From positions 1-64,000 of the IMG/VR virus record IMGVR_UViG_3300031992_000092: a stretch of DNA of 64,000 nucleotides; one strand, 5' to 3'. Below are positions 1 to 64,000 of this stretch, piece by piece; the first letter of the stretch is position 1, and every line of letters begins with the position of its first letter. The position numbers were made by a program, and so were the translations under genes. The DNA is from a virus. Under the pieces are notes generated by a model. It did not search any database, had not been told where the DNA came from, and saw nothing but the letters and a program-made list of their open reading frames with translations.

Positions 1-76
1 CTCTGCAAGCACGAATATTTAGCAAAAACACGCCTGGGAAATTTTTTAATCGAATCCCTTAAAAAGGAGAAAAACA

Positions 77-244
77 ATGTCAAAAAATAATCAAGTTCAA
101 GATGATAATGAAAAACTTCGTAAAGATTTTAAGCGTTTTATTAATAGTAAAAAGTTTATTGATTTTATAGTTCAAAATGCTCCAGATATTTATGTTTCAA
201 CTATTATTTTTGAGGCTCTTGATAAAGCATTAAAGGAAATTTAA
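77..244 (+). CDS. small hypothetical protein (55 aa), basic; MSKNNQVQDDNEKLRKDFKRF...
   Basis: ATG at 77 preceded by AAAAAGGAG RBS; TAA at 242-244. Missing from the ORF track only because it is under 60 aa. Confidence 0.4.
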   Translation: MSKNNQVQDDNEKLRKDFKRFINSKKFIDFIVQNAPDIYVSTIIFEALDKALKEI

Positions 245-274
245 TTGACAACTTTTAATTTATAATGATATAAT
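245..274 (+). promoter_or_regulatory. sigma70-type promoter: -35 TTGACA (245-250), 18-bp spacer, extended -10 TGaTATAAT (266-274)
   Basis: Read directly from the sequence. It is a near-consensus promoter immediately upstream of the polymerase gene. Confidence 0.55.
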
Positions 275-303
275 ATTAATGTAAGATAAAATAGTGACGA
301 AAG

Positions 304-3300
304 GTGTCAATTTTGAATCAAAGGGTAAGCATTCATAATCACACTTATTTTAGTAATCTTCGCCTACTTGATGCTTTATCGTCACCAGAGGCGTTGATTG
401 ACAAAGCAATTGAATTAGGTCTTGCAGGAATCGGAATTAGTGACCATGAATCTTTATCAAGTCATGTTAGAGTAAATAAATATGCTCAAAAAATTAAAGA
501 AGATTATCCAGATTTTAAAGTAATTCTAGGTAATGAAATTTATTTAACTAAAACTAGAGATTCAGGACAAAAATATTATCACTTTCTTTTAGCTGCTAAA
601 GATGAAATTGGTCATAAAACTATGCGGGAATTATCAAGTATTGCTTGGTTAAATAGTTATTTTGATAGAGGGTTACAAAGAGTTCCTACACTTTATGATG
701 AATTAAAAGAAATTGTTTTAAAATATGGCAAAGGTCATCTTATTGCTAGTTCAGCATGTATAGGTTCAAATCTTGGACAAAATATCTTAAAAATGCGAGA
801 AGCAGATATTATTGGAGATATTACTTCTCGTAAAGAAGCACATGATGATATTGTTAATCATGTATTATTTTGTCAAGACTTATTTGGAGATGATTTTTAT
901 TTTGAAATTGCTCCAGCATTATATGAAGAACAAATTTATGTTAATCAAAAAACTTATGAATTAAGTAAAATATTTGGAACTAAAGTAACAGTTCAAGATG
1001 ATAGTCACAGAATAACTCAAGAAGATTATATTGCTCATAAAGCTCTTCTTAATAGTAAACAAGGAGAGCGAGAAGATATTGATAGTTTTTATCAATATAC
1101 TTATCTTCAAAGTTATGAAGATATTAGAAAACATTTAGCTCCAACCAATTTAGATTGTGATGAACTGTTTGCTAATAGTATGGAAATTTATAATAAAGTA
1201 GAAGAATATTCTTTACTTCATAATCAGAAAGTAGTTCAAGTAGCAGTACAAGATTTTCCTAAAAAAGAAAAAACTGAATTAGATAAAGAAAAATATTCTG
1301 TTTTAAATTCTTTATATAATAGTGATAATATTCAAGAAAGAAATTGGGTTAATCAATGTATTAATAAACTTAAAGAAAAAAATATTTTTAATGATTTATA
1401 TTTAACAGAATTAGAGTATGAAGCAGATATTCAAAAAGTTGTTGGAGAAAAATTAGGAACTTGTTTATTTGCTTATCCTCTTTTTCTTCAACACTATATT
1501 GATTTATTTTGGGAGTGCGGAAGTCCTGTTGGAGTCGCTAGAGGATCGGGCGCAGCTGGTCTTAACCACTATCTTCTTGGTATTACTCAGTTAGATCCCC
1601 TTAAAGAAGGTTTTAAATATTGGCGATTTCTTAATAAAGAGCGCCTAGAGCTACCAGATATAGATATAGATACGGCACCAGATCGAAAACAAGCGGTCTT
1701 TAGTAAAATAAGAGAAGAACGAGGTCCACTTGGTTTAGTTCAAATTTGTACATTTGGTACTCTAAGTAGTCGAGCATCTGTACAAAGTGCTTGTAGGGGT
1801 TATAGATCAGCTGAATATCCAAATGGAATTGATGTAGATGAAGCTCAATATTTAACTTCTCTTATTGGTAGTGAAAGAGGTTTTGTATGGAGTATCCATG
1901 ATACTGTTTATGGTAATCCAGATAAAAATAGAAAACCTGTTAAAAATTTTGTTAATGCTGTTAGTAAATATTCAGGTTTATTAGATATTATTCTTAAACT
2001 TGAAGGTTGTATATCTCATAGAGGTATTCATGCAAGTGGAGTTCTCTTTCTTGATAAAGGTCATGAGTATGATATTAATGCATTAATGATGGCTCCTGAT
2101 GGATCAATAACAACACAATATGACCTTCACGATGCAGAGTCAACTGGAAATGTTAAGTATGACTTCCTTTACACAGATGTTGAAAGCAAAATAGCTCAAT
2201 GTCTACAACTTTTACAAGAACATGGTAAAATTGAAAAAGATTTAACTTTACGTGAAGCTTATAATAAATATTTACACCCAGATGTTCTTCCAATGGAAGA
2301 AGATAAGCTTTGGGATGCAATTGATAAAGCAAATATTCCTAGTCTTTTTCAATTAACTTCTATGGTTGGTTCTCAAACAGTTAAAAAATTAAGACCTAGA
2401 AATATTAAAACATTAAATGATGTTAATGGTATTATGCGTCTTATGGCTGATGATAGTGGTGAGTCTCCAACAGATAGATATGCAAGACTTCAAAATAATC
2501 CTCAACAATGGGAAGATGAAATGAATTATTATAATCTTACCCAAGAGGAAAAGAATGTTATTAGAGAATATGTCAATAATGGAGTTTTAATTGATCAAGA
2601 GACTCTAATGAGAATTCTTATGGATGAAAGAGTTTGTTCATTTTCTCTTAAGGAATCTAATGCAGCTCGTAAAATCGTAGCTAAAAAACAAATGAATCAA
2701 ATTGAAAAACTACATCAACAAATTCTTAATAAGGCAACAAGTGAAGCGATGGGAAAATATCTATGGTTCCTCCTAGCTCCGTCCATGGGCTATAGTTTTT
2801 CATCCATTCATGGAACAAGTTACAGTTATATTGCCGTTCAATGTGCATATCTTGCCACATATTTTCCATCTATTTATTGGAATACTGCTTGTGTACGAGT
2901 AGATGCGGGATTAGGATTAGATGATACAACCGCATATGAAAAAATTGCTAGAGCATTAGGAAATATCAAAGAACAAGGTATTGGTATTTCAACAATTGAT
3001 ATTAATAAATCTGGGATGTCTTTTGAGCCAGATGAAAAAAACAATACAATTATTTATGGATTAAAAGCACTTAATGGAGTAGGTGGAGAAATTACTCAAC
3101 AAATTATTGATAATAGACCTTATACCTCTGTTGATAATTTTAAAGAAAAAGTTAAAGTAAATAAAACTGTAATGATATCTTTAATTAAATCTGGTGCTTT
3201 TGATGAATTTGGTCCAAGAGACAAGATAATGAAAGATTATTTATATATCACGTGCGGGCCAAAGAAAAGAATTACTCTTCAAAATTTTAAAGGTTTAATG

Positions 3301-4128
3301 GATAGGAACCTTATCCCGCAAGAATTTGAATTTCAAAAAAGATTATTTGTTTTTAATAAAGCATTAAAAGCAAATTGTAAAATTGGTGATATGTATGGTA
3401 TAAACTTTAATTATTATGATTTTTATGAAGAGTTTTTTGATACATCATTACTTGAACCTCTTGGTCAAGGTTTAGGAATTCCTCAAAAAACTTGGGATAA
3501 ACTTTATAAAAATGGAATGGATCCTGTAAGAGATTATTTTAAAGCAAATCAACAAGAAATTTTAGATTTATTTAATAATACTCTTTTACAAGAAGAATGG
3601 GATAAGTATGCTCAAGGAACTCTTTCTACATGGGAAATGGATTCTTTATCTTTTTATTCTCATGAACATGAATTAAGTCATATTGACAATTCTAGATATA
3701 ATATAGTAAACTATAATAGTCTTAAAAGAGAACCTGAAATTGAATATATGTTTAAAAGAAATGGACATGATATTCCTATTTATAAAACTTTTAGAATTGC
3801 TGGAACTGTAATTGCTAAAAATAGCACTAAATCAATTGTAACTATTTTAACAACAGATAATAATGTTGTAGATATTAAGTTTACAAGAGATTATTTTGCA
3901 AAATATAATAAAAGAATTAGTGAAATTGGTTTAGATGGGAAAAAACATATCATAGAAAAAGGATTCTTTGATAAAGGAACATTAGTAATTATTAATGGTT
4001 TTAGACGTGGAGATATGTTTGTTTCTAAAAAATATTCAAGAACAAAAAGTCATCAATTATATAAAATTATTAAAATTAATCAAGATGGAAGTCTTGAGAT
4101 AACAAATAATAGAGCAGGAGAAGAGTAA
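304..4128 (+). CDS. dnaE: DNA polymerase III alpha subunit (DnaE-type) with N-terminal PHP domain
   Basis: Continuous 1274-codon ORF. PHP motif HNHTYFS...GISDHESL is present. Polymerase core motif GSPVGVARGSGAAGLNHYLLGITQLDPL...LPDIDID matches the DnaE active-site region. Start may be GTG at 304 or TTG at 313, which lies 6 nt after AAAGGTG. Confidence 0.85.
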   Translation: MSILNQRVSIHNHTYFSNLRLLDALSSPEALIDKAIELGLAGIGISDHESLSSHVRVNKYAQKIKEDYPDFKVILGNEIYLTKTRDSGQKYYHFLLAAKDEIGHKTMRELSSIAWLNSYFDRGLQRVPTLYDELKEIVLKYGKGHLIASSACIGSNLGQNILKMREADIIGDITSRKEAHDDIVNHVLFCQDLFGDDFYFEIAPALYEEQIYVNQKTYELSKIFGTKVTVQDDSHRITQEDYIAHKALLNSKQGEREDIDSFYQYTYLQSYEDIRKHLAPTNLDCDELFANSMEIYNKVEEYSLLHNQKVVQVAVQDFPKKEKTELDKEKYSVLNSLYNSDNIQERNWVNQCINKLKEKNIFNDLYLTELEYEADIQKVVGEKLGTCLFAYPLFLQHYIDLFWECGSPVGVARGSGAAGLNHYLLGITQLDPLKEGFKYWRFLNKERLELPDIDIDTAPDRKQAVFSKIREERGPLGLVQICTFGTLSSRASVQSACRGYRSAEYPNGIDVDEAQYLTSLIGSERGFVWSIHDTVYGNPDKNRKPVKNFVNAVSKYSGLLDIILKLEGCISHRGIHASGVLFLDKGHEYDINALMMAPDGSITTQYDLHDAESTGNVKYDFLYTDVESKIAQCLQLLQEHGKIEKDLTLREAYNKYLHPDVLPMEEDKLWDAIDKANIPSLFQLTSMVGSQTVKKLRPRNIKTLNDVNGIMRLMADDSGESPTDRYARLQNNPQQWEDEMNYYNLTQEEKNVIREYVNNGVLIDQETLMRILMDERVCSFSLKESNAARKIVAKKQMNQIEKLHQQILNKATSEAMGKYLWFLLAPSMGYSFSSIHGTSYSYIAVQCAYLATYFPSIYWNTACVRVDAGLGLDDTTAYEKIARALGNIKEQGIGISTIDINKSGMSFEPDEKNNTIIYGLKALNGVGGEITQQIIDNRPYTSVDNFKEKVKVNKTVMISLIKSGAFDEFGPRDKIMKDYLYITCGPKKRITLQNFKGLMDRNLIPQEFEFQKRLFVFNKALKANCKIGDMYGINFNYYDFYEEFFDTSLLEPLGQGLGIPQKTWDKLYKNGMDPVRDYFKANQQEILDLFNNTLLQEEWDKYAQGTLSTWEMDSLSFYSHEHELSHIDNSRYNIVNYNSLKREPEIEYMFKRNGHDIPIYKTFRIAGTVIAKNSTKSIVTILTTDNNVVDIKFTRDYFAKYNKRISEIGLDGKKHIIEKGFFDKGTLVIINGFRRGDMFVSKKYSRTKSHQLYKIIKINQDGSLEITNNRAGEE

Positions 4129-4155
4129 AAATATTCTTCTCCTTTTGGAGATAAA

Positions 4156-4470
4156 ATGAATGAATATTGATTTGTACATGAGCCTAAACCTGAATGGGTG
4201 CGGGAATTGCAAGAACAAGGAATTTTAACTGGCCCTGAATATGCTGCTGTAACTATAGTATATACTTTTTATACAGGAGAACATAAAGATTATCTTTATG
4301 ATGGAGATGCTTTAATTAAAACTACAGAAGGTATTATTGCTCCAATTTCTTATCAGTGGATAGACAGAGCTAAAAGAAAAAATCCAGATATGAAATTATA
4401 TTCACCAGTTGAAGGACAAATGGAAGAAATTCTTGCATCTATTTATTCCAATTTGGGCAAAAATAAATAA
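4156..4470 (+). CDS. hypothetical protein (104 aa)
   Basis: ATG at 4156 after GGAGATAAA RBS. In frame with track ORF 4198..4470 if TGA at 4168 is read as Trp (MNEYWFVHEPKPEWVRELQ...). Confidence 0.45.
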
Positions 4471-4532
4471 ATTGTAAATTTTTAATTATATTATAAATAA
4501 GTGAGCACAAAATCTAGTATAGGGAGGAATAG

Positions 4533-4736
4533 ATGATTACACTTTATAGTACAGGTTGTCCTCGTTGTAAAGTTTTAGAGCAAAAACTTCAACAAAAAAA
4601 TATTGATTTTAATATAGAATCAGATATGCAAACTATTATTGATATGGGTTTTAGAGCAGCTCCTATTCTTAAAGTAGATGAAAACTTTTATGATTTTGGA
4701 GGAGCTATTAAGTGGGTAAATTCATATGAAGATTAA
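4533..4736 (+). CDS. nrdH: NrdH-like glutaredoxin-like redoxin (CPRC active site)
   Basis: 67 aa. MITLYSTGCPRCKVLEQ has a CxxC thioredoxin-fold motif. RBS GGGAGGAAT. Lies immediately upstream of nrdD and overlaps its start. Confidence 0.7.
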   Translation: MITLYSTGCPRCKVLEQKLQQKNIDFNIESDMQTIIDMGFRAAPILKVDENFYDFGGAIKWVNSYED

Positions 4737-6690
4737 TATGAAATTAAACCGCAATTTTACAACTCAATATAATAAATTGCAAGGTGAATTTGGAACAGAA
4801 ATTGCAGAATTAAATGGTTTTGGAGATGAGCAACTTTCTTATACGGATTTTATTTCTAATTTTATAGATAAACAAACAGTAGCAGATGCTTCTATTGATA
4901 GTAATTCAAATGTTAGTCATAAAGACATTGTAACTTTAGAAAGAGAAATGCCTAAACCTCATTCTAAGCTTTTAGCTTTTAATAAAATTTATTATGAAAT
5001 TCAAAAGAAATATGGGTTTAAAACAGCTAATGAGTGGTTGCGGGCAGAGTGGATAGGTCAGCTTTATATGCACGACGCTCCATCATCAACATTTAGACAC
5101 TATTGTTTTGCTTATGACTTAAAAGATTTAGCAGAAAGAGGGTTATACTTCTTTCCTGAAAGAAATGCTAAACCAGCAGAGCATTATACAACTTTTATTG
5201 ATTTTGTAAAAGAGTTTGTTAATTATACTTGTAATCGATCTTCAGGTGCAGTAGGGTTGCCAAATCTTCTTCCATATATGTTTTACTTCTGGAAAAAAGA
5301 TATAAATGACGATTATCTAGGCATACGAACTTCGGGCAATGAACGATACTATGCTGATCAGGGATTCCAACGATTTATTTACGCGGTAAACCAAAACATC
5401 ATGAGAGATGGTTCACAATCAGCTTTCACAAATACATCAATTTTTGATCGACCATATTTTGAAGCTCTTTTTGGTGGATCAACATTTCCTGATGGAACCT
5501 TTATGATTGATTATGAAGAAGAAATAATTGAATTTCAAAAATGGTATATGGAAGTTATGTCTGAAATTCGATCAACTAATATGTTAACATTCCCAGTAAA
5601 CACAATATCTCTTCTTCGTAAAGAAGGAAAATATGATTTAAACACTCTTGATGGTTTTGTTGATCAAAATTTTGCAGAGTGGGCTATTAAACATAATATG
5701 AAATGGTCAGATTCAAATATTTTTCAAGATACATCTGTTAATAGTTTATCAAATTGTTGTCGATTAAAAAGTGATATTGCTGAGCTTGGCTATTTTAATA
5801 GCGTCGGGGGATCAGCACTTAAAGTCGGATCTGTTAAAGTATCGACAATAAATCTTGCTCGTTTAGCATTAGATACAGATTCAGAAGAAGAATATTTACA
5901 AGAACTTGAATATAGATTAATTTTAAATCTTAAAGCTCTTGATTGTATTCGCCATATAATTCAAAGAAATGTTGACAAGGGTTTGCTTCCTAATTTTTCA
6001 TATGGCTTAGTTGATTTCCCGCATCTTTATAATACAATTGGCTTCCTTGGTGTTTATGAAACAATGAAAAAATTTGGATACACTAAAGTAGATACATTAG
6101 GTAATACTTATTATACTGATAAAGCTTCTTTGTTCGGTCAGAAAATTTTTGAAACTATTCGTGAAGTATCTAATCAATTTATTAAAGATAATAATTTAGA
6201 TTATAAGATTAATTGTGAACAAATTCCTGGTGAAAATGCAGCAGATAAATTGATGAAAAAAGATAAATTCTTTTATCCAAATGCTAATATTTATGATTTA
6301 CCATTATATGGTAATCAATTTATTCCTTTAGGAATTCAAACTACTGGACAAGAAAGAGTTAGAATTCAGGCGCAATTTGATGCTTTCTGTAATGGAGGAT
6401 CAATACTCCATTATAATATTGATGCACCTTTTACAAGTTACGAAAAAGCTTTATATATGACTAATTATATTGCTCAAAAAGGTGTTACATATTTTGCATT
6501 TAATACTCGAATTTCTACATGTAAAGATAATCATGCATTTTATGGCAACGGGCCTTGTCCAGTATGTGGTAAACCAAAAGACGCAGAATTTACTAGAATT
6601 GTCGGTTTCTACACAAAAATTAACAGTTGGAGCCAGACTCGCAAAGATGAATTTAAACTTCGTAAATGGGATAACATCAATGATAATTAA
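4726..6690 (+). CDS. nrdD: anaerobic ribonucleoside-triphosphate reductase (class III RNR, NrdD)
   Basis: 654 aa. C-terminal Zn-ribbon CPVCG and a glycyl-radical-like motif (TRIVGFY). Overall length and architecture are typical of NrdD. Confidence 0.85.
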   Translation: MKINMKLNRNFTTQYNKLQGEFGTEIAELNGFGDEQLSYTDFISNFIDKQTVADASIDSNSNVSHKDIVTLEREMPKPHSKLLAFNKIYYEIQKKYGFKTANEWLRAEWIGQLYMHDAPSSTFRHYCFAYDLKDLAERGLYFFPERNAKPAEHYTTFIDFVKEFVNYTCNRSSGAVGLPNLLPYMFYFWKKDINDDYLGIRTSGNERYYADQGFQRFIYAVNQNIMRDGSQSAFTNTSIFDRPYFEALFGGSTFPDGTFMIDYEEEIIEFQKWYMEVMSEIRSTNMLTFPVNTISLLRKEGKYDLNTLDGFVDQNFAEWAIKHNMKWSDSNIFQDTSVNSLSNCCRLKSDIAELGYFNSVGGSALKVGSVKVSTINLARLALDTDSEEEYLQELEYRLILNLKALDCIRHIIQRNVDKGLLPNFSYGLVDFPHLYNTIGFLGVYETMKKFGYTKVDTLGNTYYTDKASLFGQKIFETIREVSNQFIKDNNLDYKINCEQIPGENAADKLMKKDKFFYPNANIYDLPLYGNQFIPLGIQTTGQERVRIQAQFDAFCNGGSILHYNIDAPFTSYEKALYMTNYIAQKGVTYFAFNTRISTCKDNHAFYGNGPCPVCGKPKDAEFTRIVGFYTKINSWSQTRKDEFKLRKWDNINDN

Positions 6691-7144
6691 AGGTATTATT
6701 TCTGAAGATTTTATTAATTATAAAAAACCTTGTATGGTTATAGAATTTCCAGTTTGTAAAAACTTTAAATGCGGGCAAGCCCTATGTCAAAACAATCCAT
6801 TAATAAAATATCCAGATATAGAAATTAGTTATTCTCAAATTGTTAAAAAATACATGGAAAATGATATTACACAAGCTATTGTTTTTATGGGGCTAGAACC
6901 TTTTGATAGTCCGCATGATTTATTTCTTTTAATTGAAGAATTTAGAAAATATACAATGGATGATATTGTAATTTACACTGGATATTACTGGAATGAAATT
7001 TCTACATATGTAGCTATGCTAGTGGATTATAAAAATATTATTATTAAATACGGTAGATACATTCCCAATCAAACTCCACACTATGATGAAGTTTTAGGCG
7101 TAAAATTGGTAAGTGATAATCAATATGCTGCAAAGATCAGTTAG
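6680..7144 (+). CDS. nrdG: NrdG-like anaerobic RNR activating protein (divergent Cys motif)
   Basis: C-terminal half (GLEPFDSPHDLFLLIEEF...IVIYTGYYWNEI) resembles the NrdG GGDPL...IWVWTGYKLDEL region. N-terminal cysteines are spaced C-x8-C-x4-C-x4-C rather than the canonical CxxxCxxC. Start is ATG 6680 or ATG 6647. Overlaps the nrdD end. Confidence 0.6.
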   Translation: MIIKGIISEDFINYKKPCMVIEFPVCKNFKCGQALCQNNPLIKYPDIEISYSQIVKKYMENDITQAIVFMGLEPFDSPHDLFLLIEEFRKYTMDDIVIYTGYYWNEISTYVAMLVDYKNIIIKYGRYIPNQTPHYDEVLGVKLVSDNQYAAKIS

Positions 7145-7152
7145 GAATAAAT

Positions 7153-7395
7153 ATGTATTATAATAATTATTTTAACAACAACAATAATACTACTATTTTA
7201 ATTATAATTATAGCTTGTACTCTTATAGTTGGTTTAAGTTTTCTTTTATTTGCTTTTGGCTATTGGCTAATAACTTTAATAGCTGCTCAAATTTTTAATT
7301 TTATAATTCCATTTGAATGGACATATGCTTTAGGAGCTTATGCAATATTAATAATTATTAGATTATTTATGTTACCAAGTGGTCAATCTAAATAA
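7153..7395 (+). CDS. small hydrophobic membrane protein (2 predicted TM helices, poly-Asn N-terminus)
   Basis: 80 aa, strongly hydrophobic (ILIIIIACTLIVGLSFLLFAFGYWLITLIAAQIF...). It is the last gene before a strong terminator. Confidence 0.5.
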   Translation: MYYNNYFNNNNNTTILIIIIACTLIVGLSFLLFAFGYWLITLIAAQIFNFIIPFEWTYALGAYAILIIIRLFMLPSGQSK

Positions 7396-7400
7396 AAAAT

Positions 7401-7448
7401 GCCTCAACAAAAGAATAAAAAATTCTAATGTTGAGGCTTATTTTTTTT
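7401..7448 (+). terminator. rho-independent terminator (stem GCCTCAACA / TGTTGAGGC followed by T8)
   Basis: Perfect 9-bp inverted repeat at 7401-7409 and 7430-7438, followed by a T-run at 7440-7448. Confidence 0.6.
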
Positions 7449-7476
7449 GACATTTTATTTAATAATATAGTATAAT
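7447..7476 (+). promoter_or_regulatory. sigma70-type promoter: -35 TTGACA (7447-7452), 18-bp spacer, -10 TATAAT (7471-7476)
   Basis: Consensus hexamers with canonical spacing, 24 nt upstream of the AAAGGAG RBS and ATG at 7500. Confidence 0.55.
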
Positions 7477-7499
7477 ATAATAAAACGAAAGGAGATTAT

Positions 7500-7898
7500 A
7501 TGGGAGATGTTTCTTTAGGTACTGTATATGATATTAATAAAACTGTATATAGTAATCAATCAGAAAAAATGCCAGAAGCTTTAGTTCAATCCATGTTAAA
7601 AAAAGTTTCAAGCTGGTTTAAAACTAAAGCTCTTTGTGAAGCACAATATTATATGTTTCTTTGTCGTGACCGTAATGATTATACAATTTTTAATTTTATA
7701 AAAAATAATCCAGAAAAAGGAATCAAAGAATTAATTGAATTAATTCAATCTCGTGGAATTCTTAAAGATATTGTCTATAATGAAAAATATAATTATTATG
7801 AATTTTGGATTAGTATAGATACAGAAGGATTTAGACCAGAAATGTATATGTATATTCTTTTTCCATGTAATGAATTTGTAATCGAGATTGGAGATTAA
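7500..7898 (+). CDS. hypothetical protein (132 aa)
   Basis: ORF with AAAGGAG RBS. No recognisable motif. Confidence 0.5.
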   Translation: MGDVSLGTVYDINKTVYSNQSEKMPEALVQSMLKKVSSWFKTKALCEAQYYMFLCRDRNDYTIFNFIKNNPEKGIKELIELIQSRGILKDIVYNEKYNYYEFWISIDTEGFRPEMYMYILFPCNEFVIEIGD

Positions 7899-7900
7899 AT

Positions 7901-8161
7901 ATGGATATGATGATTGCTGCTCGTCCCGCAGCTAATATTACAATTATGATTACGCAAGAAACTCCAGAATATGATGCTCAAATGGTAGCTTCTCAAACTG
8001 TTTTTGAAAAAGATTTGGAAAAAACAATTAGAAAATATTTAAATGATTATAAAATCGAAACAATGTCTATATACGGTCCTTTAGATTATATTGAACATTT
8101 AGCTGATACTCTTGGTAAAACTTTTAATCGTGAAATTACTATAATTGGAGCTGGTGTATAA
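7901..8161 (+). CDS. hypothetical protein (86 aa)
   Basis: ORF tightly packed after the previous gene. Confidence 0.4.
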   Translation: MDMMIAARPAANITIMITQETPEYDAQMVASQTVFEKDLEKTIRKYLNDYKIETMSIYGPLDYIEHLADTLGKTFNREITIIGAGV

Positions 8162-8442
8162 TGATTAAATATCTTCTTAAAACAACTGAAGAATATCGTC
8201 TTGAAACTGTAGAAGATGTAAAAACTTTTCATAAAAAACTTCAACAAGATGCTATAAATCAAGGATATACGCTAAGCTCTTTTGGATATACACAAAAGTC
8301 AACAACTGCTCGTGGAGAAATTATTGATGAATGGTGTGTTGTAAAAGTTATAAAAATATTCCAAAAAGATAAAGAACCAGAAAATGCACTTAATAAAATT
8401 ACTTATGAAACTTTTAATAGAGAGGAGTTTAATGGAGATTAA
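8161..8442 (+). CDS. hypothetical protein (93 aa)
   Basis: ORF with ATGA overlap to the previous gene. Confidence 0.4.
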   Translation: MIKYLLKTTEEYRLETVEDVKTFHKKLQQDAINQGYTLSSFGYTQKSTTARGEIIDEWCVVKVIKIFQKDKEPENALNKITYETFNREEFNGD

Positions 8443-9333: not shown

Positions 9334-9334
9334 A

Positions 9335-10270: not shown

Positions 10271-10272
10271 AA

Positions 10273-53100: not shown

Positions 53101-56100
53101 ATCATGAATAATTTTTTCATTCTCTGCTTGAGCTTGTTCTCTAACTTGTTGAGCTTCAATAACTTGATTTTTTGCTACATTTGCAATTTGATTTTCTACA
53201 ACCTTTTTCATTCCTTCTTCTGAAAAAGTTAAAGCTCCAGTTTCAGAATCAGTTATTATATATTGTGCTAATTCAGGGAAATTCTTTATTAAATCTAAAA
53301 CTTTTTGATTGGCAGTTACTAAAGCTTGAGTTCATTCAAGAGTTCCTTTTGTTAAATTCTCAAAAGTTGAATCTAAATTTTTAACTTCCTCTAAGCCACT
53401 TGTTAATTCATCTAATTTAGATTTGGCTTTTGCAGTATTCTCACTAGCAATTCTTAAATTCTCATTAGCCTTTTCTAAAGCAATATCATATCTATGGACT
53501 CAATCATAAATAGCTTTAATAGCTGCAACTAATACAGCAATTCCAGCTACTATTGCTGCTGCTATTGGAAGTATAGCACCTAAACTTGCTCCAAAACCTA
53601 AAGTCCCTGCTGTAGCTGCTTCTGCAGCACCTGTAAAAATACCAAAATGGCTACTTAAACCTGATAATATATTTGCAATTGTTGTAGAGTTTCCTAAAGC
53701 AGTAACTACTGTTTTAAAACTTCCAAAGCCTTCTTTTATATCTTTAAAAGATATAACTAACATTGGAAGTGAAGTTAATAAATTACCTACTATTTTATCA
53801 AATTTTTCAGCATTAGATAAACTATCATCAGAAATAATATTTCCTAATGAAGTAAAACTTTGTCAAACAAACACTAAGCTTGTTAAACCATCTACTAATT
53901 GAAGAACAGAACGAGTTTGTTCTTCAAAATTTAATTTAACTCCAAAATCTTTATTGACTTCAAGTTGTTGTTTATAAAGAGTTTCAGCATCTAAAATTTC
54001 AGCATCTCCTAATTGAGAGCGTAATCCTTGTTGCTTCCCTCCAGCTTGATCATTATAATCTTGAATTAAATCTGTAGGATCAACATATGAGTCTTTTAAT
54101 TCTGATAAAATATTTTGCTGCTTTTGAGCATCTTCTATTACATCATCTAATTGTTCAAATCCACTTATTAATTTATCTAATTTTTGTTTTCACTTATCTG
54201 TAATTTCTTCATTATTAAAAATTTCTGCTTTTAATTCTTCTAATCTTTTAGAAGCTTTATCACTACCAATATTAGTTTCATCAAATAATTCTTCTAGTTG
54301 TGAAATATATTCTTTTAATCCAGTAGAACTAGCTTGAATTTGTCCTTTTTCTGTAAGAGATAATTTAACACCAGCTTCTTTTAATTGAGCTTCTTTTGTT
54401 TCTTTCTCAATTAAATTTTCTAAATCTACTCTTCTATTGTTTTGAGCAGCATGGAGAGCATTTTCTGCTTGAACCGTTTTTTCAAGTAATTCATTATATT
54501 CTTGTTGATTTTTAGCAGAGGCATCGGCAATATTTTTACCTGCGGATGATTGTGTAAATTGATAAGCTCCAGAATTACTCATTTCAGTGGCTCCAAGAGA
54601 AGCCAATAAGTCTCTATTATATTTATCTGATGCTTTACCCTGTTTATTTTGTTCTCTATTAAATAAAAATTCTCCAATAGAAGAACCAATCTCACGATTT
54701 CCTAATTTTAAGAACATGGAAGTAAATGCGGTCAAGACTGGCAAGCCTCCACCGACACTATCAACAACATTCTGTAAAATATTAACAAAAGTTGTTAAAG
54801 TCTCAATAGCAGGTTTATAATTATCAGCATTAAATAAAGAATTAATTAAACCTTCTCCAGCAGCAGATAATGATTGCATTTTAGCTACTGCGGAATCCAT
54901 GTAAATTTCTTGCTGTTTATCTAAAGTTCCAATTGCACCTTCAGCAGTTTCTAATGTATCTTTATACATATCTGCATTTGACATTAAGGTCTGAAACATA
55001 TTAACTTGCTGTTTACCAGCTACCTGAATTGCTAATGCTTGTTGTTGAGCTCTGTCAAGTTCATCTCACTTATCCATTAAATCTTCGAGAATTTCACCCA
55101 TTTCCCGCATTTGACCATTAGCATCTAAAACCTCTACACCAACAGACTTTAATGCTCCAGAAACTTTACCTAAATCAACTCCATCTTCAAGAGTTTCTCC
55201 AAGTTTTAAATCTCCAATACGAGCATAAATACTACGTAAAGCATTACCAACTGTTTCAGGAGCTTGACGAGTAACAGAAACCATTGTTGATAATTGTGCG
55301 GTCAATTGATTTTGTGATACGCCTAAATCATGAGCTAATGATGCAACACGAGTTTCAGCAGTAGCTAATTCATTAAGGTCAGATGCACTTTCTGCGGCAA
55401 CTAGAGCCATAGCATCCAAAGAATCTTTAGCTTCATCAATTGAAAGTTTATATCCATTCATTAATGAAGTAATTTGTGAAGAAGCTGTTTCAGAACTTTG
55501 TTGAGTAACATTTGCTACTTCATTCGTAAGTTCTGCTAATTTCTTTTGATCTTCAACATTAAAACCGTTTTGAGCAAAAATTTGAGCAGCATCTACGATA
55601 TCAATAGTAGAACGACCTAAATTTTGTCCAGCTTGACTAGCTCATTCTGCAAATGATTTCATTTGTTCGTTACTTTGACCAGAAACAATTTGAATATTAT
55701 TTAAAGAAGTATCTAAATCTTGAACATATTCTACAGAACGACGTAGATTATTAGACATTGTCTCAAAAATACTAGCAGTAATACCCCAACGAACAGTATT
55801 ACCAAAAGTATTTACAATTTTATCAACAGCACTACTAATAGTATTAAGATTAGTATGAATTCTTCCTAATCCACCAACCATATTATTAATAGCAATTTGA
55901 CCAGAAGCACCAGCTTTATCTAAATCACTAATTAGTGTATCTAATCCAATATTTCCAATTTCTTTTTGTAATTGTTGTCCATTAATAACACCAAGTTTAG
56001 GATTAAAAGCTTTAGTTAAAGCGTCTTGGAGTTTCTGTACATTAGCAAGAGACTGGTCTAAACCAAGGTGATCTGCACCAGGGTCTAAATGCATTTGATT

Positions 56101-56925: not shown

Positions 56926-58542
56926 TTACAAAACTTTTTGCATTAATTGAGATATTTCCCGCATTGTAATTTCTACTCTAATCTTAGTATTATACATTAA
57001 ATCTAAACTTCTTCTCCAAAGTAAATCTGAACGATCTTGAGCATCATCTAAAATTCCATCTCCCTCAGTATCTACTTGCCATAGTTGTTGATTTAAGTTT
57101 GAGTAGGTTGAACGAACTAATCCTAAATTTTTACCATTACTATTTGCAACTTCTGATAAACCAACAGATGAAGAAGAATTTAAAAAATGTTCTATAAAAT
57201 TAGACATGGTTCAAAAATTACCATTAATAACCATATAAAAACTTTGGTCATCAGTATCTTCAAAACCAGCTAAAGCATTTAATAAACTTCTATATCCAAT
57301 ACTTTTAATTAAAAATTGTCATTTATTATCTGCTTCACTATAATCATTATTTCTACTTATTCCAGAAGCTATTTGTAGTATAGCTCACATATCTTCACCA
57401 GTATAACCTGCTTCTCTTCCCAAGAGTGTAGACATAGGAGTTCCATCTTGAATTTTAATGGTATAAGATTTTAAATTATCAGTTAATTGCTTTTCATAGT
57501 TCTTAGCATTTGCGCCTAACGCTATTCTTAAAACTCCACCTTCATCAGTAATATCAATAGAAAAGTCTTTCTTAGCTTTCTTTTTATAATAAGCTTGTTT
57601 CTGTTTTACTTCTTTTAATATTTCTTTTAATTCACTATCAGGATTAAAATTAACTCCATAATAATTATTTCCAGTATGACTATAAGAAACTTGCTGTTCT
57701 ATAAAATGTTCAATTTGTTCGTTAGCTTCTAATGCTTTTAAATGTGAGCGGACAATGCCAACACCTTCACTAACTTCTCTCAAAGTTTTATCAGCTTCTC
57801 GTAATCAGGCAATACATTTTTTACGAACTTCATCTAATAAGAAAATATCTTTCTCAAAATGACCACTATTTGTAGAACCTGTTTTACCATGTCGAACAAT
57901 CATGCCACTTTTTATCTCTTCCTGACAAAGCGGTATCAACTGCGCCGCAAGTACTACTTTTCCCATTGCAGTATTATATTGTTCATTAGCATTATCAGGA
58001 ATTTTAAAAGCATCGTTACTATATTTACCCATTAATGCAGCAATAACTTTACCTGCGGAAGAATATCCAGCTAAACTATCTTGTCCTAATATAGAACCTT
58101 CTGTTACTTTTAACATAGTATTTTCTACATATGCATCTAACATATGTTGAGTTTCATCAGATAATGATTGTAAATAATTATTAATAGTATCTACAAAATC
58201 ATCAATAGTGTCAAATGTTAATAAATCTTTTTTTAATCTGGTAATAATTTCTCTCGGATCCTTATCCGCACTTATTTCTGTTTCATCATTATTTTCGAAA
58301 TCTTTATTAGAAATTGTAGAAATTCCTTGTAAAATTTCTCCACTGAGAAATTGAGAAACAGCTTCTTCATCTATATTATTTTGTTTAGCTATTCTTTTAA
58401 TTTTTTCTTGTCTTTTGGCTAAATTTAACAAATGTCTTTCTAAAATTTCTGTTTTTGTTTCATATCAAATTTGATTTGCTCAAGCTTCTTCGGGAATATG
58501 TTCTTGTCAGAAATGTAAATATCTAAAACTATAATTTTCCAT
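56926..58542 (-). CDS. hypothetical structural/assembly protein (~538 aa)
   Basis: ATG (rc 58540-42) after GGAGTATAAA. Track pieces 57805..58431, 57385..57783 and 56926..57207 are in one frame, joined by TGA. Confidence 0.45.
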
Positions 58543-58612: not shown

Positions 58613-59788
58613 TTATGACTTTGTAACTGTAACAGTATAAGTCTTAGTAGCGGTTCCCTTTGTAACCTTAACTGTAACTGTATTCTCTCCAGTAGCCCAA
58701 GTAGCAGCATTACCATTAGTAATAACTGTTGTACCATTTTTAATTTCAATGGTAGCAGTATTATCTGTAGCAATAGCACTAATTGTACCATTGGCTGTAG
58801 TTGTTGTACCAGTGTAAGTTAATGTTTCAGCATCGAATGTTGGGCTAAGAGTAACTCCACTAATTGTTAATGCAGAAAGAGTAGCATCATCTTCATCAAC
58901 TGGAGTTTCTGTAGCTTCGATGTTTTCGTCACCAATAATCTGGAAAACGACAACACGCTTTTTGGTTTTATCAAACTTTGTATAGTCAGGGAATGCATCC
59001 ATAACGAATGAGAATGTTGATGGATCACCAGTATTAGCCATATTGAAAGTAAATGAAGATTGAATCTTAACATTAGGGAAGATAATCTCAACTGGCATAT
59101 CCTCACCAGAGTATTCTTCACGGAATAATCCAGAAGCTTCTACATAGTAGTTTCCAGCAAAGTTATCAGCATCAATAGTAATCTGTTTAACGCCAGCAGT
59201 TTTAACTACATATGTATCAACACGAAGAGTGTGTCCAACATATCCAGCAGCACCATCAAAGGTAATTTCAATTCCATCAGAACCTACTGTATGTTCACCA
59301 TCAGCAATAGAAGTTGTTGCAACAGGAACAACACCAGCACCAGCGTTATCTAGAACCATACCAAAAATAGGAGCAGTTCCAGAATTAACATAAAGAACAA
59401 CATCTTCTCCACCAGCTGTATCAGCATCAACTTTAACTTTTCCACCTGCTAAAATAGGAAGATCGAAAGTTGTGTGAACATACATTTTCTGGTCACCAGT
59501 ACCAGCATCAATAAGTCCAGCACCAGTTAGAACAGCAATACCCATAGGAGAAAGAAGAGCATCTTCTACGTTAAATGTAACAGTACGTTCGCCTTCCCAA
59601 GCAATAAGACGAGGATTACCACGACCACCACGAGCATAAACTAACTCAGATGTTCCCTCGACGCTTGAAGTCTTAGCTGTATCAATATAAAGTACAGGTT
59701 GACCTTTTGCGAAAGTAGTGTTACCAATTTGAGTCTGGGTACGAGCTTTGAATACAACGTCACAAATTTCACGAATACCAAAACGCAT
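58613..59788 (-). CDS. major tail protein with C-terminal Ig-like (Big_2-type) domain
   Basis: Continuous ORF without TGA and with higher GC than its neighbours. C-terminal ...ATLSALTISGVTLSPTFDAETLTYTG... is a bacterial Ig-like domain signature common on major tail proteins. Probable ATG at 59788 after AGGTGA; the track starts at GTG 59800. Followed by a strong terminator. Confidence 0.55.
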   Translation of the reverse strand: MRFGIREICDVVFKARTQTQIGNTTFAKGQPVLYIDTAKTSSVEGTSELVYARGGRGNPRLIAWEGERTVTFNVEDALLSPMGIAVLTGAGLIDAGTGDQKMYVHTTFDLPILAGGKVKVDADTAGGEDVVLYVNSGTAPIFGMVLDNAGAGVVPVATTSIADGEHTVGSDGIEITFDGAAGYVGHTLRVDTYVVKTAGVKQITIDADNFAGNYYVEASGLFREEYSGEDMPVEIIFPNVKIQSSFTFNMANTGDPSTFSFVMDAFPDYTKFDKTKKRVVVFQIIGDENIEATETPVDEDDATLSALTISGVTLSPTFDAETLTYTGTTTTANGTISAIATDNTATIEIKNGTTVITNGNAATWATGENTVTVKVTKGTATKTYTVTVTKS

Positions 59789-60666: not shown

Positions 60667-60678
60667 ATTAATCACTAC

Positions 60679-61290
60679 CTATTGAACATGTTCGCGAACA
60701 TCTTCATTAGTAATTATTTCATTTTTATCTTCATCATTTTCATGTGTTGCAGAATATTGAAGAACAATTCCTCCTCAATCTTCATTCATTATTAAACGCT
60801 GAGCGCCAACAAAACGAAGTTTTCCAATACCAGTTAAACGAGTATTGTTTAAAATTCCATCAAGATATCCCGCAATAGCAATTGGACGAGTTTTATAATT
60901 ATCCAATTCTCAACAATCAGTATTACAAAAAATAGAAAAATTTATAGTCACATTTCTAAATTCAGGATTAGAAGTTGGGAAAAAATCTGTAAATTCAATG
61001 ATTATATAAGATTTAACCTCTCCAAAGTCTTTAATTTTTAATTTTGGAGTTAAAGAAATATAACCCTCTTCTTTTAACTTTCCTAAACTATACTTATCTA
61101 TAATTTGTAAATATTGACCTTGACTTTCATCAAGACAATCAGGAGTGTTAATAATTAAAAGTCTTTTTAAATAATTACTATAAGGTTTGTTTTCTACAAA
61201 TAATTTTCTTAATATTAATTCTTGGTCTTTTTCACAAGAAAGGAAGCTAGAATGAAAATCTGTCATTATTTGTTGTGATACTCTTTTCAT
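60679..61290 (-). CDS. hypothetical neck/tail protein (203 aa)
   Basis: ATG after AGGGAGG. Track ORF 60910..61290 continues through TGA to TAG at 60679. Confidence 0.45.
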
Positions 61291-61302
61291 TTTAAACCTC
61301 CC

Positions 61303-62427
61303 TTATAAAGATTTAATATTAATTGTTTTAACATACTGTTCATTATCTGTAATTAATCCAAGAGTGAAAGAAGATTTCTTTCTAGATATAATTTCAATAG
61401 TACATTGTGTGCGGGAAGATTTGACAATTTTAGCCATTCTCTCATCAGGAATTGTAAATTCTCCCTCAACTAATGACGTATAAGTAACAATATCATAAGG
61501 ATATACTTCATCAGGTCCTTGAATGTATTGTACTGGATCTGCAATTGTAATTTCTTTTTCATATACAGTATCATTTATAATATATTTAATTTTAAAACTA
61601 CCAATTGCACTTTCTAATATATTAATAGAACAAATTTGAGCATTTTGATAAGTATCTATTAATATGGCTTTTGAATCATTATCCGCAAGTACCCATTGAC
61701 CAGATTCATCATAATAATTTGAATTAATCATATAACTAATATTTGAATCTTGTTTAACTATATCTTGTCCAATAATTATATCATTTTCATCTTCTATTGG
61801 GACAGAAGGTAAATTTTTATATTCATTGGTATAATCTTCTTTAATTACTAATTCAATAACTCCTGGAGTTGAAATAGAATCAATAGTTTGAACTTCTCAA
61901 GGTAGTCCCGCAATATTAATTTTAGTAAATCTGTGAAAATAATCTAATGTATTTTCATCCTTCTTAATATAGATTCTTCCAGATAAATTCATTTCATTTA
62001 AATTAATACTGCGTTTTTGAAACCATCTAATATCAGTTTCAGTTGGACCTTGAAAATAGATTCAATAATTTTTATTATTAATATCAAGTTGATAACGACA
62101 TCTTATAATTTGAGCTTTTAAATATGCTGTTTCTACTAAATCTGGAAGAAGAATCATTCAATAAGTTTGATCATCTAAACATTGAAATACATCTCCAGGT
62201 TCAAGCTCACTACTAAAATCAACTGAAATTATTTTTTTGTCATAGTCCATTTTAATATTATCAGTATTTATTAAACAACGAACTATTCTTTTTAATGGAG
62301 TTTTAATTCATCTACTATTATAGTCTGAAGCTAATGCTAAATGAAAACTCCATAGTTTAGTTTGTTTTATCCGACCATTAGAATTTCCACCCCAATATTT
62401 TATTCTATTTTTTAAAGAATTAGACAT
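61303..62427 (-). CDS. hypothetical structural protein (374 aa)
   Basis: ATG at 62427 overlapping the upstream stop. Continues through several TGAs into track ORF 61303..61731. Confidence 0.45.
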
Positions 62428-62728
62428 TTTGTTTAATCCTATCTAAAAGGCTACAGCATTCAAATATTGTTCTTCTATAAAGAGTAAAATCAATATCTTG
62501 AGATACTTGTAAACCTTCTAGTTTAGAAGCACAAGTTAATAAATCTCTTTGGTCGGAAAAAAGACTACTTAACCCTAGCAATTCTACTACCAAGGTTTCT
62601 AAAGGCTTATGCCAATCTTTTTCTTCTTCCCGCATAGGAAGAAGTTTAAAAACTTGAGATAAAATTCTACTAAGATTTTCTTGTACTGTAACTGTATCTA
62701 TATCAATATTATATTTTGTCATAGTCAT
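62420..62728 (-). CDS. hypothetical protein (102 aa)
   Basis: Intact ORF. Start overlaps the upstream stop (TAATG). Confidence 0.5.
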   Translation of the reverse strand: MTMTKYNIDIDTVTVQENLSRILSQVFKLLPMREEEKDWHKPLETLVVELLGLSSLFSDQRDLLTCASKLEGLQVSQDIDFTLYRRTIFECCSLLDRIKQNV

Positions 62729-63204
62729 TAGTCTTTCTCCTTCATGATTAAATCGAAGGTAGACTCATAACTACCATCCGTTCTTTTTCTTCTACGTCTA
62801 TAAAGTCGTTGAAGATGAAAACCTCTTGTTTTATATTGTTCTTGAAGCTTTAAAAGTTTGTCAATATGACTTGCTTGACTTGTAAACTTAAAATCGCTAC
62901 CACTATATTTTTGTCGAATATTTTCAACACTAGCTAACTGATAACCAATTCATTCAACAATCATATATTGACGTAATATCATTTTTTCTTCTAAATCCAA
63001 TAAACAAGAAAACCGAGCATTTTCTAAATCTACATTAAATATGTCTTTTTTAGGAAATTCAAAGTGCGGAATGGCTGCTAAAAGAATTTCTTGAAGAAGC
63101 TCTTCTGTATCCTCTTTTGTTAATTCCATAAACATATCATCAGTAATTCCCGCAAGGAAGAAATCATACATCTCAGAGAAAGAAGTTACCTCTTCATCAG
63201 CCAT
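62728..63204 (-). CDS. hypothetical protein (158 aa), acidic N-terminus; possible head-tail connector/adaptor
   Basis: Track ORF 62950..63204 continues through TGA to TAA at 62728. Position just after the head gene and the helical acidic N-terminus fit a gp6-like adaptor, but there is no motif proof. Confidence 0.4.
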
Positions 63205-63213
63205 TTTTCCTCC

Positions 63214-63777
63214 TTAAACTTTTACTCTACGTCCCGTAGATTCTTCTTGTTTATTTTGTTGAACTCTACGGCCATGCTTTTCCTCTTCTTTTGGAGCGTC
63301 GGCCGCAATAGCTCTTTTATTTTTTATCATATTTAAAACATTTAATCCAGTAGCTTTACTAATAGCTTCCATACGATTAATGTCAGAAATTTCAAGTTCA
63401 ACTGCTCGATTGACTAATCTATTTTTAATTGCTTTTGGAGCAAAATCAAGAGCATCTAATAATGTATCCATGCTCGCAGTAGTTAATGCGGCATCAATAT
63501 CTTCATCAGTTCAATTATATTCTATAGTATCATCCCGCACACCAAATTCACGAGCAAGAGCTTTATTATCTACTCTAAGGTAATTTTGAAGTAAAATTTT
63601 TCCTCCACGATCATAAGATAATTCTCTTAATTCACCAGCTTTAATTTTAAAAGTAGCTTTTGGAGGAAATTCTCTTTCAATTCCTGTTGGTGTTTTATAA
63701 GAAACTACAGAATCCGAAAGACTAGTTACTGCAACAACCTCATCATCAGGAATAGCAGTCATATCTACAATTGTCAT
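63214..63777 (-). CDS. hypothetical protein (187 aa)
   Basis: ATG after AAGGAG RBS. Track ORFs 63511..63777 and 63214..63471 are in frame, joined by one TGA. Confidence 0.5.
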
Positions 63778-63800
63778 TTTATCTCCTTATATCTCCAAAA

Positions 63801-63838
63801 AGTAGGGGAGGGGAGTTTCACTCAACCCTCCCCTACTT
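63801..63838 (-). terminator. terminator: 12-bp stem AGTAGGGGAGGG / CCCTCCCCTACT plus T-run
   Basis: Perfect GC-rich inverted repeat followed on the minus transcript by UUUUGG. Sits directly after the partial upstream gene. Confidence 0.6.
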
Positions 63839-63851
63839 CTATAAATTAAAA

Positions 63852-64000
63852 TTAAACAGTCTTGGTAAGACTGGTATTTACATACTGAGTAATTGCAGGA
63901 TTAGAGAATACTGCGATACCAAACTTTTTATAGGTCTGCATATCGGTTGACCAATCATCATTATCTGTGATTGTACGAACCATTGTTGGACCTTCAAAAG
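63852..64000 (-). CDS. 3' end of a gene that begins beyond the window (possibly the major head protein)
   Basis: Open frame ...GPTMVRTITDNDDWSTDMQTYKKFGIAVFSNPAITQYVNTSLTKTV* ending at TAA 63852-63854. A strong terminator immediately downstream is typical after major capsid genes. Its identity is an inference. Confidence 0.35.
   Translation of the reverse strand, partial: FEGPTMVRTITDNDDWSTDMQTYKKFGIAVFSNPAITQYVNTSLTKTV

Follow-up and report, generated by a model that had tools for sequence, protein, structure and literature searches.

The stretch of DNA analysed here, referred to as the window, comprises positions 1 to 64,000 of the IMG/VR virus record IMGVR_UViG_3300031992_000092. It belongs to a rumen phage, a TGA-recoded, SPbeta-like ("Agate"-type) siphovirus whose genes carry many copies of the short word TGCGGG and its reverse complement CCCGCA. 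Coverage by long open reading frames rises from 51% to 94% when TGA is read as sense, and TAG recoding brings no gain. A block of early and replication genes on the plus strand is followed by a block of late and structural genes on the minus strand, and the motif is present in both (Table 1). The early genes avoid TGA and the late genes hold 192 in-frame TGA against 91 TGG codons; the Trp in the 'SHW' motif of the GH25 domain is itself encoded by TGA. The profile is in keeping with the TGA-recoded 'Agate' phages found in animal guts (bioRxiv 10.1101/2021.08.26.457843; PMC10607447). The first-pass annotation, made from the letters alone, had taken the DNA for phage sequence, which our tests supported.

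On the plus strand of the window TGCGGG occurs 30 times and CCCGCA 29 times (59 sites), in agreement with the first-pass estimate of about 30 of each, and every example coordinate given there lies no more than 8 nucleotides from a real site. The G+C content is 29.0% and not about 25% as first put. An order-1 Markov model predicts 1.9 copies of TGCGGG/CCCGCA, a 32-fold excess (first put at about 40-fold over one or two copies), and 0.7 copies of TGCGGGA/TCCCGCA. Markov models of orders 3 to k-2 were unsuitable because they absorb the motif, whose sub-words occur almost solely inside it; the expectations used are those of order 1 and of shuffles. TGCGGGA is present in 48 copies against 0.66 in dinucleotide-preserving shuffles (standard deviation 0.96, maximum 4), an excess of about 70-fold, and none of 100 shuffles reached 5 copies or more. 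Hexamers with at least five G or C have a median count of 1 in the window, and the next unrelated one has at most 13 copies. The over-representation is genuine, strong and shared across the phage family.

The base that follows TGCGG is G in 59 cases, A in 30, C in 10 and T in 12, where about 12.5 are expected for the four together, and the four words stand at about 33, 7, 5.5 and 2.7 times expectation, respectively. These counts place the core at TGCGG and show that the preference for the following base is graded. The first-pass annotation had counted more than 15 TGCGGA near-variants; there are 30, with 4.8 expected, spanning 1516 to 63070. The neighbour on the 3' side of TGCGGG is A in 48/59 sites (81%, first given as about 75%), the 5' neighbour is C in only two of the 59, as had been noted, and T precedes GCGGG in 59 of its 63 occurrences. 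Sequence upstream of the window was taken from near-identical IMG/VR contigs, by which 107 kb were recovered altogether and some 30 kb or more of the genome is absent; these 107 kb contain 158 copies of TGCGGR, about 1.5 per kb.

Over 88.5 kb of the clade, the full signal is an asymmetric word of about 12 nucleotides, (not C)-TGCGG-R-A-NNN-S(S). Position 0 is not C, positions 1 to 5 are TGCGG, position 6 is R and position 7 is A (76%); G is rare at position 8 and C at position 9, and S is preferred at positions 11 (71%, p = 2e-16) and 12 (56%, p = 2e-6). The preference for S four to five nucleotides past the heptamer is seen in most frame classes, and the TGCGGA variants show the same A7 and S11 context. 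Beyond 12 nucleotides the flanks are random. A dispersed repeat element of the repetitive extragenic palindrome or miniature inverted-repeat transposable element (REP/MITE-like) kind was ruled out by the random outer flanks, the unrelated spacers of paired sites and the location of all sites within genes.

All 59 TGCGGG sites are genic and they occupy six codon contexts, namely xTG-CGG-GAx, xxT-GCG-GGA, TGC-GGG and three more on the opposite strand. Sense sites fall in frames 1/2/0 in 18/13/2 cases and antisense sites in frames 2/0/1 in 12/11/3, consistent with the earlier statement that all frames and both strands are used. Rare codons of the window lie inside the motif in these proportions: CGG (Arg) 18/24, CCC 11/23 and CCG 12/31, along with GCG 13/54. 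The spread over six codon contexts and the recruitment of rare codons show that TGCGGG is a signal at the DNA level, as had first been proposed, and does not stem from codon or peptide bias. The same test exposed codon-pair artefacts in two other phages, GCA-GGA in Sophrita and Ala-Ala pairs in PMBT24. Neither the intergenic DNA of the window nor the G+C-rich tRNA array upstream of it contains a TGCGGG site.

Sense and antisense sites number 8:4 in the plus-strand gene block and 25:22 in the minus-strand block, in place of the tallies of 11:4 and about 27:19 given by the first-pass annotation. In the early block the ratio agrees with the prediction from GC skew. In the late block, however, where skew predicts about 3:1 in favour of sense, a ratio of about 1:1 is found, and the antisense excess reaches z = 3.8 at 11-30 kb and z = 2.1 at 30-48 kb. 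The motif is therefore enriched in both orientations beyond mutational ease, and the mild coding-strand preference once suggested is more aptly seen in reverse. Over the 107 kb the plus and minus strands carry 51:44 TGCGGG sites despite a strong GC skew, with only a weak regional excess. A clean switch of orientation was considered and rejected, as the best change-point near 30 kb (29:13 versus 14:24) has an uncorrected p of 0.007 and loses strength when TGCGGR is counted or composition is corrected for.

Each strand carries a site every 1.4-2.3 kb or so. Spacing is Poisson-like, with a coefficient of variation of 0.94 compared with 0.98 under random placement, which rules out regular spacing. 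The lowest motif density in the window is found in the gene of the leucine-rich repeat protein, with 6 sites in 11.8 kb. Convergent (head-to-head) pairs no more than 100 nucleotides apart are two to three times as frequent as expected in three independent phage groups, whereas divergent and tandem pairs within the same distance show no excess in any of the three. We observed 7 convergent pairs in this clade (2.1 expected, P 0.0065), 33 in TGCGGC phages (14.8 expected, P <0.0005) and 21 in other TGCGGG phages (11.5 expected, P 0.0075). The distances are mostly 35-65 nucleotides, and the spacers of the four pairs in the window (Table 1) are unrelated to one another. A further head-to-head pair lies at 4051/4093 of locus L094 (L numbers denote the loci examined), and these five pairs are 42-62 nucleotides apart.

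Table 1 Motif sites, variant sites, second over-represented heptamer and genes of the window, with the base that follows each TGCGGG
Feature	Position	Strand	Next base	Remarks
TGCGGG	623-628	+	A	sense in PolIII-alpha gene
TGCGGG	2904-2909	+	A	
TGCGGG	3253-3258	+	C	left member, head-to-head pair with 3315
TGCGGG	3315-3320	-	A	right member, head-to-head pair with 3253
TGCGGG	4199-4204	+	A	
TGCGGG	5039-5044	+	C	within NrdD gene
TGCGGG	6018-6023	-	A	
TGCGGG	6770-6775	+	C	
TGCGGG	7925-7930	-	A	
TGCGGG	9840-9845	+	A	
TGCGGG	10376-10381	+	A	head-to-head pair with 10434
TGCGGG	10434-10439	-	A	head-to-head pair with 10376
TGCGGG	11977-11982	+	A	antisense in lysin gene
TGCGGG	14581-14586	+	A	
TGCGGG	15055-15060	+	T	
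TGCGGG	16210-16215	-	A	
TGCGGG	21041-21046	-	A	
TGCGGG	22416-22421	+	A	
TGCGGG	23363-23368	-	A	
TGCGGG	26322-26327	+	A	
TGCGGG	26785-26790	+	A	
TGCGGG	26947-26952	+	A	
TGCGGG	27323-27328	-	T	
TGCGGG	28310-28315	+	C	
TGCGGG	29319-29324	+	A	
TGCGGG	29521-29526	+	A	
TGCGGG	30302-30307	-	A	
TGCGGG	31398-31403	-	C	
TGCGGG	32749-32754	+	A	
TGCGGG	32996-33001	-	A	
TGCGGG	33095-33100	-	A	
TGCGGG	33204-33209	-	A	
TGCGGG	33260-33265	-	A	
TGCGGG	33936-33941	+	T	
TGCGGG	34837-34842	+	A	head-to-head pair with 34892
TGCGGG	34892-34897	-	C	head-to-head pair with 34837
TGCGGG	35416-35421	-	A	
TGCGGG	35638-35643	+	C	
TGCGGG	37081-37086	+	A	head-to-head pair with 37133
TGCGGG	37133-37138	-	C	head-to-head pair with 37081
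TGCGGG	41082-41087	+	A	
TGCGGG	41306-41311	-	A	
TGCGGG	41636-41641	-	A	
TGCGGG	44715-44720	+	A	
TGCGGG	45016-45021	-	A	
TGCGGG	46113-46118	+	A	
TGCGGG	46558-46563	+	A	
TGCGGG	47776-47781	+	A	antisense in tape-measure gene
TGCGGG	49932-49937	-	A	kept in L001
TGCGGG	50462-50467	-	A	kept in L001
TGCGGG	53026-53031	+	A	kept in L001
TGCGGG	55104-55109	-	A	kept in L001, L002
TGCGGG	56958-56963	-	A	kept in L001, L002
TGCGGG	60869-60874	-	A	kept in L001, L002
TGCGGG	61410-61415	+	A	kept in L001, L002
TGCGGG	61907-61912	-	A	kept in L001, L002
TGCGGG	62629-62634	-	A	kept in L001, L002
TGCGGG	63149-63154	-	A	kept in L001, L002
TGCGGG	63534-63539	-	A	kept in L001, L002
TGCGGA variants	1516, 9264, 10951, 14047, 15927, 20527, 20987, 37408, 41725, 42256, 43855, 46481, 47417, 54541, 54889, 58054, 63065	+		start positions, 6 nucleotides each
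TGCGGA variants	6910, 9824, 11177, 12594, 23603, 28345, 36244, 38259, 43453, 45734, 56554, 58265, 61682	-		start positions, 6 nucleotides each
CCAAGAG/CTCTTGG, examples	2541, 3214, 8738, 10344	+		
CCAAGAG/CTCTTGG, examples	3458, 8109, 23664	-		
Early/replication gene block	304-10980	+		motif-bearing; almost no in-frame TGA
DNA polymerase III (PolIII) alpha	304-4128	+		
NrdD (class III ribonucleotide reductase)	4726-6690	+		
NrdG, dUTPase, RuvC-like nuclease, SPFH protein	within 304-10980	+		
Late/structural gene block	11032-63777	-		motif-bearing, fibre proteins included; in-frame TGA = Trp
GH25-CHAP endolysin	11032-12591	-		
Leucine-rich repeat protein (DUF285/BspA-type), 3924 amino acids	14496-26270	-		62 in-frame TGA
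Tape measure, 2971 amino acids	47179-56094	-		
Major capsid	58613-59788	-		

About 160 loci around the capsid, polymerase, ligase and primase genes of relatives were examined. In relatives at 93-97% identity all of 19 sites are kept, and L002 has gained one new site through three clustered substitutions in the capsid gene. In a relative at about 70% identity the density is still high and 4 of 15 aligned sites are kept, where about 2.5 are expected by chance, which rules out positional conservation over long range. TGCGG is enriched 3-10 fold in nearly all metagenomic relatives, and dozens of related gut and rumen phages carry dialects of their own (TGCGGC, TGCGGA and overlapping GCGGC pairs). 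TGCGG is followed by G in this clade, in L041/42/46/48/67, in L149 (27 sites in 12.5 kb) and in L168 and L172; by C in many relatives, such as L116, whose 21 kb hold 60 sites distributed among all six frame classes; and by A in L090, L156 and L166. The form TGCGGGA(AA) recurs at merely 41-46% capsid or 41-45% primase identity, whereas closer relatives (62% primase and 71% ligase identity, and also primases at 51-57%) carry TGCGGC. The dialect does not follow capsid or primase similarity, as judged by comparing identities. In L153, L159, L132 and L158, phages of 27-32% G+C, genic NotI octamers GCGGCCGC occur 2-5 times per 15-21 kb. The palindromes GCGGCCGC and GCCGCGGC were ruled out as a separate phenomenon, since each consists of overlapping opposite copies of GCGGC. 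A further phage of the same family, also TGA-recoded and enriched in both TGCGGC and TGCGGG, lies in L101 (CAMPBT010000008.1), within a metagenome-assembled genome labelled 'uncultured Bacillales bacterium'.

The cultured relatives on Bacilli and Clostridium botulinum show no excess of GCGG. Sophrita has GCA-GGA in frame in 47/62 cases, a codon-pair effect, the GCGGC/TGCGGC enrichment of PMBT24 lies mainly at Ala-Ala codon pairs, and SPbeta has a mild excess of GCNGC (90 versus 47). A second heptamer over-represented at the DNA level in the window is CCAAGAG/CTCTTGG, which lies on either strand and in several frames and reaches 22 copies where about 4 would be expected. CCAAGAG is also enriched in Enterococcus phage EF1 (43 versus 8) and in many metagenomic relatives, and CCAGAAG has a similar role in L187-191.

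The first-pass annotation had named a Chi-like site, a modification or nicking site and a binding-site array without choosing among them. That list stands in part, and we keep the Chi-like site as the leading candidate because of the GCGG core, the graded specificity, the 3'-flank context and the host-linked appearance of the distribution among relatives. We tentatively propose that the motif serves the AddAB/RexAB helicase-nuclease of the Firmicute host as a Chi-like regulatory sequence, selected in both orientations; that host AddAB is the reader, and the direction in which it would read, we infer. Double-strand ends of phage DNA, arising at injection, from restriction cuts, at broken forks or in packaging, would be entered by AddAB, which would degrade the DNA until, on the 3'-ended strand, it ran into the motif from the 3' side. 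The enzyme might then spare that strand and pass it to RecA or to the Sak4/single-stranded DNA-binding (SSB) recombination system of the phage, a hand-over that would feed recombination-dependent replication. Many copies in both orientations would be selected because breaks fall anywhere and yield two ends, and because the probability of recognition is modest at each site; the phage would write them into its genes with whichever codons fit. A break inside a convergent pair would offer both AddAB molecules a correctly oriented site simultaneously, which would square the excess of such pairs with a Chi role.

The nearest known system is that of the Firmicute Chi sites (AGCGG in B. subtilis, GAAGCGG in S. 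aureus, GCGCGTG in L. lactis) and the Chi-rich phages (Bobay et al. 2013, PMC3784561; lambdoid phages of the LLS type, PMC12315714). TGCGG is one base away from the B. subtilis Chi, and it has GCGG in common with the Chi of S. aureus and with that of Caulobacter, GCGGTGGT (bioRxiv 10.1101/2021.07.08.451572; PMC5443536). Like Chi, the motif is a short, asymmetric, G-rich word with a GCGG core (TGCGG with an R-A extension, holding 4-5 G and 1 C; every known Chi is G-rich), it is strongly over-represented and tolerated in genes, its density and not its position would matter, its variants would be partially active, and it has a 3'-flank context. The activity of E. coli Chi depends on nucleotides 4-7 of the 3' flank (PMC5041463), an effect that the S found 4-5 nucleotides past our heptamer may parallel. 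AddAB recognises a given Chi with a probability of about 0.25 (PMC5443536), so a high density of sites would be useful. Phages that are rich in Chi and lack RecBCD inhibitors form a known class (PMC3784561; PMC12315714), and no recognisable Gam is encoded in the recovered 107 kb; homologues of Mu Gam, an ExoV-like helicase, the methyltransferases of 949 and PMBT24, and YonO were all sought there and not found. Since the dialect does not follow phage phylogeny, it points to a reader determined by the host, and the distribution among relatives looks host-linked, which favours a Chi-like role.

Several observations, however, weigh against this proposal. Sites of the motif are evenly spread at about 1.5 per kb in nearly equal orientations, with no polar use over the 107 kb, whereas the known cases have one orientation near an end; Chi-rich lambdoid phages are strongly polar and terminally clustered, at 20:3 and 32:0 (PMC12315714). 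The head-to-head excess at 35-65 nucleotides is predicted by no published Chi model, and the second enriched heptamer needs a separate explanation. The motif matches no known Chi. Nor do cultured relatives enrich the Chi of their hosts. Lactococcus phage 949 has no GCGCGTG, Sophrita has 9 AGCGG with 14.5 expected and Brevibacillus phage Sundance (L108, 1-50000) has none with 23 expected. In SPbeta (L111, 60001-110000), the archetype of the family to which this phage belongs, AGCGG is not over-represented (29 versus 22.6) and yet divides 27:2 between the strands. Enterocloster phage PMBT24 has an annotated Gam gene and is still enriched in GCGGC, mostly at Ala-Ala codon pairs. As side observations, the 27:2 strand bias of SPbeta exceeds the GC-skew prediction, and Sundance retains TGCGG, GGCGG and CGCGG despite its lack of AGCGG.

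The motif also resembles the DNA uptake sequences (DUS) of Neisseria and the uptake signal sequences (USS, AAGTGCGGT) of Pasteurellaceae. Those too occur about once per kb in about equal orientations, lie in coding DNA in tolerant frames, form dialects that differ at one or two positions and hold their density while sites turn over, and the USS core also contains GTGCGG; the density, use of both orientations, genic location and dialects among relatives found here are those of an uptake sequence. DUS and USS, however, are chromosomal signals of naturally competent Gram-negatives spread by uptake bias, whereas the carrier here is probably a virulent phage of a Gram-positive host, with no intergenic terminator-like pairs and no known link to competence. 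To our knowledge, sequence-specific DNA uptake is not known in Firmicutes.

A reader encoded by the phage is a serious alternative to a host Chi. In one form of it, somewhat doubtful to us, the motif might be a 'self-barcode' of the phage. A dense, lineage-specific and strand-specific word of about 12 nucleotides would then be read by a phage-encoded primase-helicase, nickase or polar end-protecting factor, and phage and host DNA would be told apart by site density. The reader would start or protect replication at the sites, head-to-head pairs about 50 nucleotides apart would be the functional unit, and the dialects together with CCAAGAG would reflect diversifying co-evolution of reader and genome in SPbeta-like gut and rumen phages.

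A narrower form of phage-encoded reading, in which 5'-TYCCGCA-3' is the preferred template of a DnaG-type primase or the site of a nickase in replication, seems unlikely to us. As a priming site, it would give primers that begin with 5'-GCGGRA..., finish some 11-12 nucleotides on, at S-S, and are stable in a genome of 29% G+C; with sites on both strands, forks of either direction would be served, and head-to-head pairs would be small bidirectional start points. The phage does encode DnaB and a CHC2 primase beside PolIII alpha. The motif with its S-S context spans 11-12 nucleotides, which is the length of a bacterial primer, and the frequency of sites on each strand is near the size of an Okazaki fragment. 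Both strands are enriched, as strand-specific template signals such as the primase sites of T7 (GTC), SP6 (GCA) and bacterial DnaG (CTG/CTA) require, the complement of the motif ends in GCA, and an excess confined to convergent pairs is the arrangement that the first primers have where synthesis starts bidirectionally. On the other hand, the dialect does not track the primase, spacing is random and not regular, and SPbeta, 949 and EF1 share the YorI-YorJ-YorK-YorL replication module without GCGG enrichment. The primases known to us read trinucleotides, and we know of no genome-wide enrichment for such a site; a literature search on primase-site enrichment and on the literal motif returned nothing relevant.

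Less likely again is a target of the restriction-modification (R-M) type, that is, of a Type III, Type IIL/MmeI-like or BREX-like methyltransferase or nuclease of phage or host. The benefit would lie in modification or processing at many sites, for example self-marking or programmed breaks for recombination-dependent replication. Such sites are asymmetric words of 6-7 bp with an A near the 3' end, as here, and the head-to-head excess matches the substrate grammar of Type III and ISP enzymes. Their specificity changes fast and several words can occur in one genome; here the word differs among close relatives, and one genome carries at least two asymmetric over-represented words (TGCGGRA and CCAAGAG in this phage, CCAGAAG in L187-191). 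SPbeta-group phages are known to carry multispecific cytosine methyltransferases whose targets include GCNGC. Against this, R-M sites have crisp specificity and are avoided by phages, whereas the motif is enriched and graded (G > A > C > T after TGCGG, A7 at 76%) and not all-or-none. R-M selection is known to remove sites and not to add them (PMC6286503); on restriction-site over-representation our literature search returned only this account of avoidance and no report of enrichment. By Pfam and tblastn no methyltransferase or restriction-type gene, and thus no cognate enzyme, was found in the recovered 107 kb, some 30 kb or more of the genome being absent, and the mechanism by which such a phage would benefit is not known.

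An array for a double-strand DNA-binding protein of phage or host that organises, protects or marks the phage chromosome appears improbable. A footprint of 12 bp with an unspecified 3-bp spacer would suit one recognition helix and an adjacent contact, and intergenic and tRNA regions, in which binding would upset expression, contain no sites. The reader could be a small winged-helix protein encoded beside the SSB and Sak4 genes, and L086 does encode a MarR-like protein of 95 amino acids (2162-2449), or it could act as a Tus-Ter-like polar roadblock. A reader blind to orientation, however, should give the roughly 3:1 sense ratio and not the observed 1:1, only one class of close pairs is enriched, about 150 genic roadblocks would impede transcription, and no candidate protein has been tied to the motif. 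Absence of any function, with the motif produced by composition, codon-pair or peptide bias, a repeat element or a context-specific mutation or repair bias (of the very-short-patch type), is very improbable: codon-pair effects do top the list in some relatives such as Sophrita and PMBT24 and SPbeta has its GCNGC excess, but here six contexts on both strands recruit the rarest codons, flanks and pair spacers are unrelated, shuffles do not approach the count, near-cognate words are too rare to feed a repair bias of 70-fold, and the new site in L002 took three clustered substitutions.

If the motif is a Chi mimic, it would be the first candidate Chi for uncultured rumen and gut Firmicutes, with a TGCGG core and lineage-specific extensions, and the hosts of a large group of uncultured phages could be predicted from its dialects. 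A virulent, stop-codon-recoded phage would then pay a codon cost to tame the main DNA-end nuclease of its host in both directions, a strategy so far documented mostly in temperate lambdoid phages, where a single orientation is used. Should the motif prove not to be Chi, it would be a new genome-wide phage signal with a grammar of its own, a 12-nucleotide asymmetric word used on both strands and head-to-head at about 50 nucleotides. Cultured relatives with related signals exist in PMBT24 (GCGGC) and EF1 (CCAAGAG). The 12-nucleotide extension, the head-to-head excess, the TGA recoding and the differing dialects of relatives go beyond the first-pass annotation.

The sequence upstream of the window holds, about 29 kb away, an array of 25 tRNA genes that includes a tRNA with the anticodon UCA (L109 8582-8677). 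Genes for a type II topoisomerase, an ATP-dependent ligase, an SSB-like protein, a Sak4-type ATPase, DnaB, a CHC2 primase and a RecJ-like nuclease also lie upstream; DnaB and the CHC2 zinc-ribbon primase adjoin PolIII alpha, and the gene order agrees with that of yorG-yorL in SPbeta. The cultured phages related by capsid all infect Firmicutes (Enterococcus phage EF1, Lactococcus phage 949, Enterocloster phage PMBT24, Brevibacillus phage Sundance and Bacillus phage Sophrita), and megablast of the 20-40 kb part of the window against GenBank phages found no near-identical cultured phage. Two routes to the host were tried and abandoned. In species genomes the endolysin matched unrelated bacteria and a TGA-recoded phage contig that had been mis-binned. 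Homologues of the LPXTG pilin-like gene of the phage sit on other phage contigs or in a metagenome. That gene (L098 4534-6540) encodes a sortase-dependent, pilin-like surface protein with GramPos_pilinBB, SpaA and LPXTG domains, and its homologues occur mainly on other phage contigs of 130-175 kb.

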